Positions 32,369-37,442 of a stretch of DNA of 64,000 nucleotides are shown piece after piece; position 1 is the stretch's first letter, and every line of letters starts with the position of its first letter. The notes under the pieces were generated by a model. That model searched no databases. It was not told where the DNA came from and saw only the letters and a program-made list of their open reading frames with translations. Origin of the DNA: an uncultured Acidimicrobiaceae bacterium (GTDB lineage Bacteria > Actinomycetota > Acidimicrobiia > Acidimicrobiales > Bog-793). The translations under genes and the position numbers were made by a program. Location: positions 714 through 64,713 of the forward strand of contig CAVXGQ010000002.1 of the NCBI GenBank assembly GCA_963761425.1, in the 5' to 3' direction.

Positions 32369-32512
32369 TTACTTCTTCGCTTTACCCTTCTTCTTCTTGC
32401 CAGACTTAGCCTGAGATAGGTCGCTACCGGCTACTTCCTTGACTTTCTTGGGTGTCTTGGGGTTGCGAAGTAGTCTGCCGGCTTCGGACGCGTCAGGCTT
32501 ACTTGTTGGCAT
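32369..32512 (-). CDS. 47-aa lysine-rich small protein (hypothetical)
   Basis: Hand-called, below the track cut-off. AGGAGG lies 6 nt upstream of the ATG. The sequence is MPTSKPDASEAGRLLRNPKTPKKVKEVAGSDLSQAKSGKKKKGKAKK*. It lies 124 nt downstream of the ApeA-like gene on the same strand. Confidence 0.5.
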   Translation of the reverse strand: MPTSKPDASEAGRLLRNPKTPKKVKEVAGSDLSQAKSGKKKKGKAKK

Positions 32513-32636
32513 GACAGACCTCCTAGTTAGCTTGATCGAAGATCCTATCTCACCATACGAACACGTGTTCGAAGCCGCTTCACCGCCGTCGCCTTTGCGG
32601 CCACTTAGCCAACCTGCCTGGAGAACCGGCGGCAGG

Positions 32637-34052
32637 TCATTCGCCTATCGGTTCGCCATCAAACGCTGGGGTCGGTGGAAATGGTTGGGCTGTCCACGAA
32701 AGGCGCTTAGCGATGAGGATGAACTGCTCATTCTTGCATAAGCGCTGGTGGATCCACGCCGGGGAGAGACCGATATTGGACAGCAAGATCAGCCTCACGA
32801 TCCAGTCCAGCGCCAAGAGCTCGTAGTACAACTCCTCAGGGTCCTTGCAGCCCGCGTACAGGTTCGAGCCATGCGATGGCAGATTTCGAGCGTTGCGAAT
32901 GTGATTCGCGAATGTGTCAATGTCTCCCGGAGCTAGCGGCATGCCGGCTTTGATAGCCTGCTCGACAAGTTCAACCATCCTCGTTTTGAACGAGGGCTGA
33001 TTCGCTGGCGAAAGCACCGAGCTAGCCCACTCTCGCAGCTCGCTTGGAGCAGCGTCGACAATGATCCGAACACGGGCCTCATGCTGATTCGTTGGCAGAT
33101 TCGGATGATTCCACAATGCGACATGCATTGCTTCCGCGGCCTGCGCGATGTTCGTTACACGATCGTCTTCGAACATGAACGGCGCGTACGTCGCGACGAT
33201 AACTCGAGTGACAACGCCCTCTAGCTTCTCTTGTGCGTCTAGCCAGAGGTCGATTGCCTGCTGTGCGTTGGCCAGCGCACTCAGCGGACCGACTTGACGG
33301 ACTTCGAGGAGAGATTTGTCTCGTTGCTTCAGATCATCTCCGAGTAACGGCATGTGGATCGGCAGCGGTCGCGGGGTGCTTTGGAACTTAGCCATCAAGA
33401 AGGTGATTCGATTGGCGGCACCCGTCAACAACGAAATCAAGTTTCGAAGTGGCGCGATCCAGCTGTTCAGACCTTCGTACACGGACATCGGTGATTCGAC
33501 GTCGATCGACCAACTAGTCGTGGCCTGTGCGCTGGCCTTCGTAGCAGAGACATGCATTTCTGGATAAGTGACGAGCTTGACCCTGGCTCCGTGTGATGCG
33601 AAGTCCAAGTGTTCCGTCCGCGGCACCTCGATTGAATGCTTCGACGACAGGTGAATCGCAGGCGGATTGACCCAATCCAACAGACAGTCAGTTTCGAAGG
33701 TGAACTGGTCACAAGCGAGGTTCGTTGCTGGAACGTGAGCGCCTTCAATCGCATACCGAAACGCGTCAGTGTGGTTTGCTTCGAGCGGACCTGGCCAGAA
33801 CAAGCTCAAGACGTCGACGAGCGTGACGTCACCGACATCATCGACACGTCCGAAGACGACCGGGTACTGACGATTCTCAATGCTTGCTGGAAAGCTGATA
33901 ACCGTCCCAGGAGGCAATGGAGTTGGAGGTTCAAGCTGAAGATTCAGTGCTAGCTCCAGATGAGCCCCAAATTGCACTGATCCGCGAAGTCCGCGTTGCG
34001 GGTACTCAGGCAACCAGAACACCCCGTTCCACGTCGTGTCCGGCATAGGCAT
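32637..34052 (-). CDS. ApeA-like HEPN-domain protein (candidate abortive-infection/defence effector)
   Basis: 471-aa ORF. The N-terminus WNGVFWLPEYPQRGLRGSVQFGAHLELAL resembles the ApeA N-terminal domain pattern (G.FWLPe.p...v.G.L.f....l.L.L). The helical C-terminal region carries an Rx4H HEPN motif (IRNARNLPSHGS). The local GC content is lower and the gene sits in a tRNA island. Confidence 0.6.
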   Translation of the reverse strand: MPMPDTTWNGVFWLPEYPQRGLRGSVQFGAHLELALNLQLEPPTPLPPGTVISFPASIENRQYPVVFGRVDDVGDVTLVDVLSLFWPGPLEANHTDAFRYAIEGAHVPATNLACDQFTFETDCLLDWVNPPAIHLSSKHSIEVPRTEHLDFASHGARVKLVTYPEMHVSATKASAQATTSWSIDVESPMSVYEGLNSWIAPLRNLISLLTGAANRITFLMAKFQSTPRPLPIHMPLLGDDLKQRDKSLLEVRQVGPLSALANAQQAIDLWLDAQEKLEGVVTRVIVATYAPFMFEDDRVTNIAQAAEAMHVALWNHPNLPTNQHEARVRIIVDAAPSELREWASSVLSPANQPSFKTRMVELVEQAIKAGMPLAPGDIDTFANHIRNARNLPSHGSNLYAGCKDPEELYYELLALDWIVRLILLSNIGLSPAWIHQRLCKNEQFILIAKRLSWTAQPFPPTPAFDGEPIGE

Positions 34053-34213
34053 AGGTCCAGGCTACGTACACCGCAGCAGAGCGGAGCGGCTGATGATGCC
34101 TCTGCCTTCGATGGCGAGGTCACTGACCAGTCCACCGGCGCTACACCAGAGCTGGGCCGGCCGGCAAAGCCACCTGCTCCAAAATGACGCGCGGTCATGG
34201 AGGGGGTGACCGT

Positions 34214-34243
34214 CGTTTCGGAGACGAAACGTCAACTTGACGT
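34214..34243. promoter_or_regulatory. two adjacent palindromes in the divergent promoter region (candidate operator)
   Basis: The first is CGTTTCG-gaga-CGAAACG (34214-34231). The second is ACGTCAA-c-TTGACGT (34229-34243). Both lie between the ApeA-like gene and the divergent HTH gene. Confidence 0.35.
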
Positions 34244-34273
34244 CGACGAGATGGCAACCTAACATTCTTTTTT

Positions 34274-35332: not shown

Positions 35333-35512
35333 GTGCCACGGCGCAGATCAGTTACCAGCCAGCTTTACCGAGTGGCCCGCATCAGCAACAACCTTCGTGC
35401 CGTTTCCCGCGGACCAGGGGCCCTCGCGAAGCGCGAGGTACGTCGCAAGGCCTACCGAGCAAGCGGGAGCTTCACCCGCAGGATTCTGAAAGCGTTCAGC
35501 CTGAGCAAGTGA
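35333..35512 (+). CDS. small basic hypothetical protein (59 aa)
   Basis: A GTG start is preceded by GGAGGAG (35319-35325). The sequence is VPRRRSVTSQLYRVARISNNLRAVSRGPGALAKREVRRKAYRASGSFTRRILKAFSLSK. It resembles small Arg/Lys-rich proteins seen on actinobacterial phages and elements (recalled from memory). Confidence 0.45.
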   Translation: MPRRRSVTSQLYRVARISNNLRAVSRGPGALAKREVRRKAYRASGSFTRRILKAFSLSK

Positions 35513-36079
35513 CGACCAGACAACTAGGCAGAGTGGCTAGGACGGTGTTGAAATAATCGCTCGGGCTGAAACGGGCAACGCAGTGACCAGGGTATTCGCT
35601 CCGGAAAATTGGCTCGGGGGCGAATAAATCAGCATTCTCCTAGTGCGCGACGTGCGTGGAGCTGGAGCGAGTCGGTGTCGGAGATCAGCCGGCGCGGCGT
35701 CCCGGCAGAGGAGCGGGGGCAGTCATGGGGCTTTCAGCTCTGAGTTGTCGCCACCGGCTGAATACTGACTGTAAGTATCCACGTGGCAGCAAAGCGCCTC
35801 TGCCGGGCTGCTGCCGGTGGCGACGGGCATGGTTCAAAACACTGATTGGCAGGCTCGGGGTTGACGGTCGGTACCTCGTAGAGCTCTGCCGTCGCATTGA
35901 CGACGTGTAGATGGCGGTGCTTGTCCATGTTCCAGTGCTCGATGTCCGGCTACTGATCCCACTCGTGGTAACAGCCTGCGCAATCCCAGTGCTCAAGCTT
36001 TTCTGTCGCAGTCGCCGGTAAACGACTATTACCACTTAACTCCCGGGCTCAGGGTGAAGTTGCTCGTGCACCCGCGACA

Positions 36080-37342
36080 TCAAGCTTCGAACTCGAGCGC
36101 AGCAATGGCCAAGCGCTTTCCGACGTTCGTGCGTCCGTCGTAGTGGAGACGCAGCGTCGACTCGCTGTTACCAAGGATGTCGGCGACCGTACGGTACGAC
36201 TGGCCGGCGTCGAGCATCGTCGTTGCCGCAAAGTGCCGCAGGTGAAGCAGCGTGACGGACGACGCTCCTCTAATCGACATCCAGCGGTTGCTGAGCGACT
36301 CGGGGCGCGTGGGAACCTGGCTATCAAGGCCCCCGGGGAAGACATACTCACCCGCACCGGGATCTGAACCGCTAAGGGCGCGACGCCGGTCAAATTGCCG
36401 AGCCAACGCAGCGGCAGCGGCATTCGTGAGCGGCACGTCGCGCCAGTCTGATCGCTTGGTTGGCTTGCGGACCAGCCCCACACCAGGTCCACCGTCGCTG
36501 ATCGAAGCGGCGACGTGGACTTCATTTGCCTCTAGGTTCACGTCTCGCCATCGGAGGCCAAGCAGCTCACCCTTTCGCATGCCTGTGCTTGCGAGCACGA
36601 TTGCCATATCCCCGAGTTCGGGGTCGCGCTCTGCGGCACAGTCGAGCAGGGCGCGCACTTCAACCGCTGTCGGGGCGAACGGCTTCGATCTCGTGGTGCG
36701 AGGTCTGGCGGCATCCTTGCAGGGGTTCGAATCGATGAGGCCCCGCTTTCGGGCGAGTTCTAGTGACCGATTGAGCGCCGTCGCGCATCGCCTGATCCAT
36801 TCGGTTCCACGACCGGAAGCACGAAGAGTTGCGTAACACTGTTCAATGTCCTGCCAGGTGAGGCGCGACAAGCGGATGTCGCCGAACCGTCTGCCGTCAA
36901 CTAATACGGCATCCGCCATCGTCCGAGTTGCCGAACGAGTTGTCACGAGGGTCTTGGGTGCAAGCTCAATAACCCCCGATTCGACGGTGCGGAGGTAAAG
37001 CGTGAAGGCGGCCTGGACCGACCTGGCGTTTGTGGCGTTCGGAAGTCGCCGCTCGTGATCTGCGACCTTTAGTCGGGCAAGCGCTACCTCGGCGTCTTCG
37101 CGCGTCCCATGCACCCGCCGGGACACTCGGCGACGGCGCCCGCTAACCGGATCGCGGCGAATTTCAACGTCGACTCGCCACACATCCCTACCAAGGGGGA
37201 TGACGCCTCCACTACCGCGTTTCCGACGGCGATCGCCTCCTGGCGCGGACCGGTTTGGGGAAGTAGATCGGCTGGTCACGGGTGAGATAGTAGACCAAGT
37301 CAGTAGACCGAAGCACAATCCGCATTGGCGGAACTCCATCAC
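36080..37342 (-). CDS. tyrosine-type site-specific integrase
   Basis: The region ..LRASGRGTEWIRRCATALN.. is followed by the catalytic domain (LASTGMRKGELLGLRWRDV..WRDVPL..LHLRHFAATTMLDAGQSYRTVADILGNSESTLRLHYD). It lies immediately downstream of the 3' end of tRNA-Gly. The true start is probably internal to the 420-aa ORF. Confidence 0.9.
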   Translation of the reverse strand: MMEFRQCGLCFGLLTWSTISPVTSRSTSPNRSAPGGDRRRKRGSGGVIPLGRDVWRVDVEIRRDPVSGRRRRVSRRVHGTREDAEVALARLKVADHERRLPNATNARSVQAAFTLYLRTVESGVIELAPKTLVTTRSATRTMADAVLVDGRRFGDIRLSRLTWQDIEQCYATLRASGRGTEWIRRCATALNRSLELARKRGLIDSNPCKDAARPRTTRSKPFAPTAVEVRALLDCAAERDPELGDMAIVLASTGMRKGELLGLRWRDVNLEANEVHVAASISDGGPGVGLVRKPTKRSDWRDVPLTNAAAAALARQFDRRRALSGSDPGAGEYVFPGGLDSQVPTRPESLSNRWMSIRGASSVTLLHLRHFAATTMLDAGQSYRTVADILGNSESTLRLHYDGRTNVGKRLAIAALEFEA

Positions 37343-37369
37343 TCTGGCCGCTCACCAGGACTATTTTAG

Positions 37370-37442
37370 AGCGGACGACGGGACTCGAACCCGCGACCCT
37401 CACCTTGGCAAGGTGATGCTCTACCAACTGAGCCACGTCCGC
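37370..37442 (-). tRNA. tRNA-Gly (anticodon GCC)
   Basis: The reverse complement is GCGGACGTGGCTCAGTTGGTAGAGCATCACCTTGCCAAGGTGAGGGTCGCGGGTTCGAGTCCCGTCGTCCGCT. It folds as a cloverleaf with the 7-bp acceptor GCGGACG/CGTCCGC and the anticodon loop TTGCCAA. It also has the T arm GCGGG-TTCGAGT-CCCGT. CCA is not encoded. Confidence 0.93.

Follow-up and report, generated by a model that had tools for sequence, protein, structure and literature searches.

A small tRNA-Gly(GCC) island of an uncultured Acidimicrobiaceae bacterium carries a predicted HEPN ribonuclease of the candidate defence family PDC-S58

The window analysed here is a stretch of 64,000 nucleotides (nt) from an uncultured Acidimicrobiaceae bacterium (contig CAVXGQ010000002.1). 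Beside its tRNA-Gly(GCC) gene lie, read from right to left, a gene for a tyrosine integrase, an open reading frame (ORF) for an Arg/Lys-rich protein of 59 amino acids (aa; orf59), a gene for a 325-aa protein with a helix-turn-helix (HTH) region, a divergently oriented gene for a 471-aa protein with a HEPN domain at its C-terminus, and an ORF for a 47-aa Lys-rich protein (orf47). An earlier note on this DNA had read the locus as a tRNA-Gly(GCC) island with an adjacent tyrosine integrase, a layout which is borne out by ARAGORN, Rfam and the integrase family PF00589. The locus is an ordinary small island carrying a new member of a known HEPN candidate family. We consider it probable that this island spans 5.1 kb (32289-37368) and combines three modules of separate history, and that the HEPN protein works alone as a predicted defence ribonuclease (RNase). 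The first module would be the tyrosine integrase beside the tRNA. The second would comprise the HTH gene, a stand-alone gene of the RelI/ClpC2 type with a Cys/His C-terminal domain, followed by the 59-aa basic protein. The third, at the far end, would be a two-gene cassette of the 471-aa HEPN protein and the 47-aa Lys-rich protein.

The 471-aa protein is shortened to 469 aa in the public gene call, which uses an ATG two codons in. Its N-terminus had been noted before to resemble ApeA-type proteins and its C-terminus to carry an Rx4H HEPN motif. Both domains are found by Pfam above the cut-off, namely ApeA_NTD1 (PF18862; 49.2 bits, cut-off 25.5) at aa 8-212 and HEPN_Apea (PF18739; 56 bits, cut-off 24.4) at aa 301-430. 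R389 and H394 of the catalytic motif are invariant in alignments of 20 and of 64 relatives. Moreover a GxWWLP motif and several tryptophans are nearly invariant among the aligned relatives, with W13, W127 and W270 being conserved. Structure prediction by AlphaFold2 with the 64-sequence alignment gave a confident model (pLDDT 93.1, pTM 0.91) which is beta-rich at positions 1-233 and helical at positions 263-450. ApeA-NTD1 as defined in 2013 has about 300 aa, consists mostly of beta strands and shows conserved aromatic residues (PMC3710099); the beta-rich region 1-233 of the model therefore agrees with this definition. Searching the full model against PDB and BFVD with Foldseek yielded no meaningful full-length match (TM <= 0.17). 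The sole PDB matches obtained by sequence were designed TIM barrels, which were rejected as spurious repeated weak matches.

The protein also matches the PADLOC single-gene candidate PDC-S58 (PDLC05048) at full length (E 8.5e-34; aa 3-446 align to positions 1-448 of the 461 in the profile), and the PDC-S58 match recurs in all 64 aligned family members. Two HEPN-only PADLOC models called Cas13-ApeA match the window protein as well. We equate the Pfam Apea HEPN family (ApeA/BMEI1217, Anantharaman et al. 2013) with PDC-S58. The window protein shares with it the two-domain architecture, the length class (about 460-480 aa), the beta-rich N-terminus with conserved aromatic residues and the invariant Rx4H motif. 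It differs from the family at large by being divergent, island-borne and located beside a conserved 47-aa ORF. An exhaustive search with 50% clustering returned 1274 representatives at E<=1e-3, of which 13 reach E<=1e-30. Over the full length the best relative shares 42% identity, and a pattern scan of the genome collection detected no close relatives. Judged by its sequence, the window protein is a divergent member of a large, named candidate defence family, PDC-S58.

The earlier note had further tied this protein to the described single-gene anti-phage system ApeA. This connection does not hold. The validated anti-phage ApeA is Ec1ApeA (WP_000706972.1, 601 aa; Gao et al. 2020; Juozapaitis et al. 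2026, bioRxiv 10.64898/2026.01.26.701840), which is annotated as "HEPN family anti-phage protein ApeA". Sequences of characterised ApeA proteins were taken from the supplement of Juozapaitis et al. 2026 and full-length Ec1ApeA was recovered from an E. coli chromosome. Ec1ApeA matches the PADLOC ApeA model PDLC02157 with E 2.9e-264, while the window protein shows no match to this model at E<=1. Conversely, Ec1ApeA matches neither HEPN_Apea nor ApeA_NTD1 of Pfam at E<=1. The first 380-400 aa of Ec1, Thr1 and Pa1 ApeA gave no ApeA_NTD1 match either, and the family hidden Markov model (HMM) stayed silent on them even with filters off. BLASTP of the window protein against Ec1ApeA produced nothing below E 8. 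An hhalign comparison of the 64-sequence profile with Ec1ApeA aligned 22 columns around RNxxxH with a probability of 0.15%. The RNxxxH centre is present in both proteins (RNLPSH in the window, RNKITH in Ec1ApeA) and is a superfamily-level feature only.

ApeA consists of N, Mid and HEPN domains with alpha-catenin and PafA as structural analogues, whereby the N-terminal domain and the HEPN domain build its ligand pocket (Juozapaitis et al. 2026). It forms doughnut-shaped, decameric or dodecameric oligomers and causes abortive infection via cleavage of the tRNA anticodon loop; Ec2ApeA is activated by 5'-phosphorylated deoxydinucleotides (Juozapaitis et al. 2026). The window protein resembles this system in being a single polypeptide with a C-terminal HEPN RNase domain with RNxxxH on mobile or variable DNA, and for either of them abortive infection through cleavage of RNA suggests itself as the working model. 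In contrast to the 601-aa N/Mid/HEPN protein Ec1ApeA, however, it has 471 aa and a beta-rich N-terminus, and no sequence relationship is detectable. The window protein is thus without the N-terminal architecture of Ec1ApeA. Since the N-terminal architecture differs and a sequence relationship is undetectable, neither the cleavage of tRNA anticodons nor the doughnut oligomers nor the activation by deoxydinucleotides can be carried over to the window protein. In E. coli (NZ_CP025865.1, 1916176-1922424) the Ec1ApeA gene is found between an IS2 transposase and a MobQ relaxase.

For the window protein we therefore rely on what is known of the HEPN superfamily and on the PADLOC single-gene listing of PDC-S58. 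Members of the HEPN superfamily typically cleave RNA with an Rx4H active site that is composite and formed by a dimer. By analogy, the beta-rich N-terminal domain would sense an infection or stress cue, two HEPN domains would dimerise to complete the composite Rx4H active site, and the activated enzyme would cleave cellular RNA, leading to abortive infection.

Table 1. Features of the tRNA-Gly(GCC) island in window coordinates.
Feature	Position	Strand	Basis and remarks
Distal island end	32288..32289		inferred from comparison with L091; att repeat absent in window
orf47, Lys-rich, 47 aa	32369..32512	-	AGGAGG 7 nt upstream; copy in L091
Perfect 14-nt palindrome CGAACACGTGTTCG	32558..32571		in the 124-nt HEPN-orf47 spacer; direct reading
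ApeA-NTD1 + Apea-type HEPN protein, 471 aa	32637..34052	-	Pfam, PADLOC; predicted RNase effector
HEPN catalytic motif RNLPSH, R389..H394	32871..32888	-	alignments of relatives
Two palindromes and putative promoter	34214..34265	+	direct reading, promoter scan; function inferred
Partner, 325 aa: N-terminal RelI/ClpC2-type HTH and C-terminal domain	34274..35251	+	nine-member family profile
Partner HTH region, aa 35-91	34376..34546	+	PDB 9sdc (RelI); phrog_686
orf59, Arg/Lys-rich, 59 aa	35333..35512	+	GGAGGAG upstream; homologue in L001/L002
Integrase module common to L012	35911..37368		blastn and alignment
Tyrosine integrase, <=420 aa	36080..37342	-	PF00589 E 7.8e-16; phrog_1 integrase E 8.5e-50
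tRNA-Gly(GCC)	37369..37442	-	integration target and proximal island end; ARAGORN, Rfam tRNA 72 bits

The proximal end of the island is set by the only tRNA of the region, called as tRNA-Gly(GCC) by both ARAGORN and Rfam. The integrase looks intact. The earlier note had placed it 28 nt beyond the tRNA 3' end; the adjacency stands, while the distance of the first possible start was measured as 26 nt, and the true start may be further in. The cargo had been described as lower in GC than the flanks, and this is the case (55-64% against 65-72%): GC amounts to 55-60% at 32.2-34.2 kb and to 60-64% in the remainder of the island up to the tRNA, with 65-72% in the flanks.

For comparison, relatives were anchored on the oligoribonuclease gene (orn) just right of the tRNA, using metagenome-assembled genomes of Acidimicrobiaceae and Acidimicrobiales. 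Two of these loci, L011 and L012, carry the same tRNA-Gly(GCC) sequence. L011, the closest of the orn-anchored loci, matches the window only from 37366 rightwards, so that homology breaks at the tRNA 3' end. L012 is window-like from 35911 rightwards, with 84% DNA identity across the entire shared stretch 35911-41000. Its integrase is 94% identical to that of the window at the protein level, with a ratio of non-synonymous to synonymous substitution rates (dN/dS) of 0.22. The cargo further left is not shared, the leftward sequence of L012 being unrelated to it. Because L011 holds a different island and L012 the same integrase without the window cargo, the tRNA-Gly-dut-orn site is a variably occupied integration hotspot in this lineage. 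The integrase module (35911-37368) hence separates from the cargo. The other island of L011 (6600-9350), at the same tRNA-Gly(GCC), encodes a different tyrosine integrase, a serine recombinase and, by sequence appearance, a probable NYN-domain protein. Synteny on the left side, as needed for an empty-site comparison, was seen in none of 80 orn-anchored loci.

The opposite end of the island is less obvious. The earlier note had been unable to find a left attachment (att) repeat, and neither a search for exact-seed repeats in the window nor local alignments of the tRNA, to 28.0-37.3 kb as well as to the whole window, gave anything above noise. A T-arm-like match of 12/17 positions just left of 32289 was considered as an att remnant and discarded as weak and judged to be chance. 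The distal end was located by means of L091, a 1663-nt metagenomic contig (JGI 3300044904) that is 91.5% identical to the window in its matching part. The two align from codon 65 of the HEPN gene to its stop, through the 124-nt spacer and orf47 and over another 85 nt, up to window position 32288/32289. Past this breakpoint L091 continues with CACCTTGCCAAGGTGGGGGTCGCGGGTTCGAGTCC, which is identical to positions 28-62 of tRNA-Gly(GCC) at 34/35 sites and lies in the orientation expected for a displaced att copy. The attachment identity deduced from L091 would therefore reach from the anticodon arm to the T-loop. No complete tRNA is present in L091. From the end of homology together with the tRNA-Gly fragment it follows that the window island extends over 32289-37368 (5.1 kb), and that the HEPN-orf47 cassette occupies the distal position in a tRNA-Gly island of a second population as well. 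At 1585-1663 of L091 the tRNA match stops after position 62 (GAGTCC, then GATGTTGGCAC). No intact acceptor 3' strand comes after the fragment, whereas a tRNA end that had simply been displaced would be expected to have one.

In the window the repeat was either deleted or the cassette arrived by recombination. As the distal att repeat is missing, excision of the island is doubtful; the island would have lost this repeat, may no longer excise and is probably immobilised. An excisionase is not evident within the island. Compared with tRNA-integrated genomic and defence islands in general, the locus shares the integrase abutting the tRNA 3' end, the low GC and the variable site occupancy. It differs from them in its very small size, the lack of an evident excisionase and the missing distal direct repeat. 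Two further contigs, L096 and L097, reproduce the entire arrangement and had looked like independent instances of the island. With 99.96-100% identity to the window they stem from the same strain and were discarded as evidence.

Both small ORFs pointed out in the earlier note hold up as real genes, each preceded by a strong Shine-Dalgarno sequence. The orf47 product is identical to its L091 counterpart at 46/47 aa, the genes differing by 5 synonymous and 1 non-synonymous changes. It belongs to phrog_5079, a phage small-protein family of unknown function (E 1.5e-9); a tblastn search against 50,697 phage records gave no match. The 14-nt palindrome in the HEPN-orf47 spacer is, as an exact match, unique in the window and carries one substitution in L091. 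RNA structure of this spacer is not significant (z -0.93). By these sequence comparisons orf47 is a genuine gene, and in L091, the one comparison that is informative, it is linked to the HEPN gene.

One could thus suppose that the HEPN gene and orf47 form a two-gene unit in which orf47, either co-transcribed or under signals of its own in the spacer, acts as inhibitor, antitoxin or RNA-binding modulator. This would fit the co-linear, co-inherited arrangement in the only diverged copy (L091, 92% DNA identity), where homology ceases 85 nt past orf47, and likewise the coding constraint, the strong Shine-Dalgarno sequence and the palindrome of the spacer. However, the linkage is drawn from two close copies only and may be simple co-inheritance. 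Neighbourhoods were compared in eight other contexts of the HTH gene, referred to as the partner in the following, and in seven other contexts of ApeA-like genes with 23-43% identity (L008/9, L092/93, L094/95, L098, L099, L101/102 and L103/104). None of the seven ApeA-like contexts contains an orf47 or orf59 homologue, a partner-like gene, a related integrase or a shared neighbour. Moreover orf47 falls into a phage small-protein family and PADLOC treats the HEPN family as a single-gene system. We therefore regard a two-gene unit as unlikely.

Several points speak against a HEPN protein working alone in defence as a separate module of a 5.1-kb island. For the PDC-S58 / Pfam Apea family the literature searched holds no experimental report, just a prediction in Streptococcus thermophilus. 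The genes adjoining the HEPN relatives of 41-43% identity have no obvious defence character. With 7 ApeA-like and 8 partner contexts the neighbourhood samples are small, and the distal boundary is based on one comparison, that with L091. The L091 copy is cut inside the HEPN gene, so that its upstream side is not visible. Finally, both copies seen have orf47 together with the HEPN gene, and hitch-hiking accounts for this no better than a two-gene system does.

The missing experimental validation would also suit an alternative in which the HEPN protein is a selfish addiction or competition module or an RNA-processing enzyme, carried as cargo of a decaying island. Several relatives adjoin ordinary genes (YidC, CMD, Iso_dh) and the att repeat is lost, which points in the same direction. 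On the other hand, the HEPN gene is under purifying selection (dN/dS 0.21 against L091) and its catalytic dyad is invariant. It resides on a mobile island whose hotspot is variably occupied, some of its relatives are found beside GmrSD-type or other defence genes, and the family is patchy and fast-diverging, as reflected by the 13 of 1274 representatives at the stricter threshold. Taking both sides into account, this alternative appears improbable, and a predicted defence RNase acting on its own is still preferred.

The partner had been described as a protein with a clear HTH and a Cys-containing domain, and both parts were recovered. Its HTH is of the RelI type. Residues 35-88 match PDB 9sdc (RelI) with E 1.7e-7 for the family profile and 7.9e-4 for the single sequence, and the same region matches the HTH DNA-binding protein family phrog_686 (E 8.3e-9). 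In the RelS-RelI pair of M. tuberculosis, RelI acts as the antitoxin and neutralises the RNase toxin RelS by direct binding (PMC13284704). The RelI/ClpC2 HTH family is actinomycete-specific, and those of its members that are fused to other domains reportedly occur as stand-alone genes (Han et al. 2026, PMC13284704). Among the nine members of the partner family (53-100% identity) the HTH region is strongly conserved, and H242, C255, C257 and C276 are invariant, which may constitute a zinc site. The partner belongs to no Pfam, PADLOC or NCBIfam family. Pfam scans of the nine members returned weak HTH-type matches only and nothing consistent for the C-terminal domain. The AlphaFold2 model is poor (pLDDT 53), and tblastn against the 50,697 phage records gave no match.

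With the RelI family the partner shares the homologous HTH, and its variable neighbourhoods agree with the stand-alone nature reported for fused members. It differs by its length of 325 aa and by a C-terminal domain which is neither DUF3887 nor DUF2812 and lacks a Pfam match. In contrast to the RelS-RelI pair, no RelS-like toxin is adjacent, and the partner gene is divergent to the gene of a 471-aa HEPN protein instead of encoding a short antitoxin in an operon with a small RelE/ParE-like toxin.

Genes of the kind found in the second module recur in integrase-linked and defence-type islands. In L001 and L002 the partner homologue is located between an HTH_17 gene and a Mrr-like nuclease gene, with SIR2-HerA in the region. 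L003-L005 show it between two unknown genes and an integrase, L006 shows it divergent from an HTH_31 gene, and in L010 it stands beside a transposase gene of the DDE_3 family, i.e. an insertion sequence (IS). In L007 a 53-nt fragment (6731-6784, minus strand) resembling the 3' part of tRNA-Gly(CCC) lies 1.2 kb from the partner homologue, with no complete tRNA. Nearby are an integrase fragment as well as DUF3644, SHOCT and Fic/RhuM genes, and the locus gives the impression of being the border of a further tRNA-Gly island whose cargo is of the defence type. Around the L001 homologue (71% identity; 4600-17000) we noted VapC50_C, HTH_17, the Mrr-like nuclease, DprA with a DEAD/ResIII helicase, an orf59 homologue, and SIR2_2 with HerA-like genes; this setting is defence-island-like. 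The cut leftmost gene of L010 was considered as an IS-split ApeA fragment and rejected, since it is unrelated.

The earlier note had listed the 59-aa ORF in a possible combination with the HEPN gene. This is not borne out. L001/L002 encode a 46%-identical homologue of likewise 59 aa (E 9e-17), which follows the partner homologue at a distance of 4.7 kb downstream, and orf59 therefore goes with the partner-type backbone and not with the HEPN gene. The L001/L002 homologue falls into a 90% cluster of 62 members on many contigs, and the family is widespread. Neither Pfam nor PHROG contains a match to orf59, and none was found in viral contigs.

The spacer between the HEPN gene and the partner gene measures 221 nt (34053..34273) and contains two palindromes, as had been stated before. 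The first reads CGTTTCG-GAGA-CGAAACG (34214-34231), the second CGTCAA-C-TTGACG (34230-34242). Both are unique in the window; as many matches occur in 11/100 shuffles, hence they are not statistically remarkable. A -35-like TTGACG (34237-34242) overlaps the second palindrome and is separated by 17 nt from TAACAT (34260-34265), which in turn lies 8 nt from the GTG start of the partner gene. Read this way, the partner gene would be near-leaderless and is probably self-repressed through the palindrome over its -35 element. L010 has another palindrome at the equivalent position. In a check for a shared operator, neither the palindromes of this spacer nor that of the HEPN-orf47 spacer recurred elsewhere in the island, including the regions before the HEPN gene and orf47.

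The two divergent genes also differ in their evolutionary distances. The partner and its L010 homologue are 88% identical at the protein level (dN/dS 0.056, synonymous divergence dS 1.23), and at the DNA level their homology does not go beyond the coding sequence and some 40 nt upstream of it. This dS is sixfold that of the HEPN gene against L091 (0.21), a gap which hints at separate histories of the two genes, although the comparators stem from different samples. Furthermore none of the eight partner contexts contains an ApeA-like gene.

The earlier note had suggested that the HEPN gene and its HTH partner could form a regulated system or one of several components. This does not hold, given the absence of co-occurrence in either direction and of the palindromes before the HEPN gene and orf47. 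A partner which regulates or neutralises the HEPN RNase, as in a regulated ApeA variant or a toxin-antitoxin-like pair with RelI-like direct binding, would agree with the divergent arrangement across palindromes and with the HTH homology to an antitoxin that binds its RNase toxin directly, but it is very improbable given the missing co-occurrence (8 and 7 contexts), the L010 homology limited to the partner coding sequence, the sixfold dS gap, the reported stand-alone nature of fused RelI homologues, and the unrepeated palindromes at the partner promoter, which are some 160 nt or more away from the start codon of the HEPN gene (34052). There is likewise little probability that the HEPN protein is controlled by a neighbour here, be it orf47 as a small inhibitor or modulator in a new two-gene cassette or a RelI-type domain neutralising the HEPN RNase. 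The pairing of the HEPN gene and the partner is, on the comparisons available, most likely a coincidental adjacency.

Some further observations concern the non-coding parts and surroundings of the island. The 570-nt non-coding stretch between orf59 and the integrase contains a perfect 12-nt inverted repeat, GTCGCCACCGGC / GCCGGTGGCGAC (35747-35758 and 35813-35824, 54 nt apart), and a hairpin follows shortly after orf59 (35593-35626). A 64-aa ORF on the minus strand (35734-35928) was called by one gene-calling pipeline, whereby only its first six codons are conserved in L012. Left of the island ordinary genes are found, namely a frameshifted HlyIII gene and genes for an aldo-keto reductase, a DUF4232 protein, an epoxide hydrolase and MarR. 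The first of these, a haemolysin-III family gene just left of the island (31286-31931, plus strand), bears a frameshift near 31815-31825. Its Pfam match covers only aa 9-180, and the conserved C-terminus RIFGYHELFHACTIAAFTCHLIAI lies in another frame with its stop at 31929-31931. The gene is either a pseudogene or an assembly error. A 174-nt patch at 29603-29795 (plus strand) of the window is 81.6% identical to 7369-7539 of L012. In L012 only 359 nt separate it from the shared integrase module, against 6.1 kb in the window. The patch leads into a T-arm-like CCCGGGTTCAAATCCCGG, then CAGCCCGACA, and no RNA is called there by ARAGORN or Rfam. An old att site of some other element may have left it behind.

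For the specialist the locus offers little surprise; its main value is that the equivalence with ApeA is corrected and the island end mapped. It shows a tRNA-Gly hotspot that is filled by independently moving modules. The partner represents a previously undescribed fusion class in the RelI/ClpC2 HTH family, and if a RelI-type neutralisation of a HEPN RNase were true after all, the reach of the newly described RelI antitoxin fold would include a HEPN toxin. The names constitute a trap: ApeA_NTD1 and HEPN_Apea of Pfam do not describe the validated anti-phage ApeA, and equating the two in annotation leads to a wrong transfer of tRNA anticodon cleavage and deoxydinucleotide activation. Taken together, the Pfam Apea family is large, with its 1274 representatives, and a compact, mobile actinobacterial member with a high-confidence model is a reasonable first candidate for functional tests.

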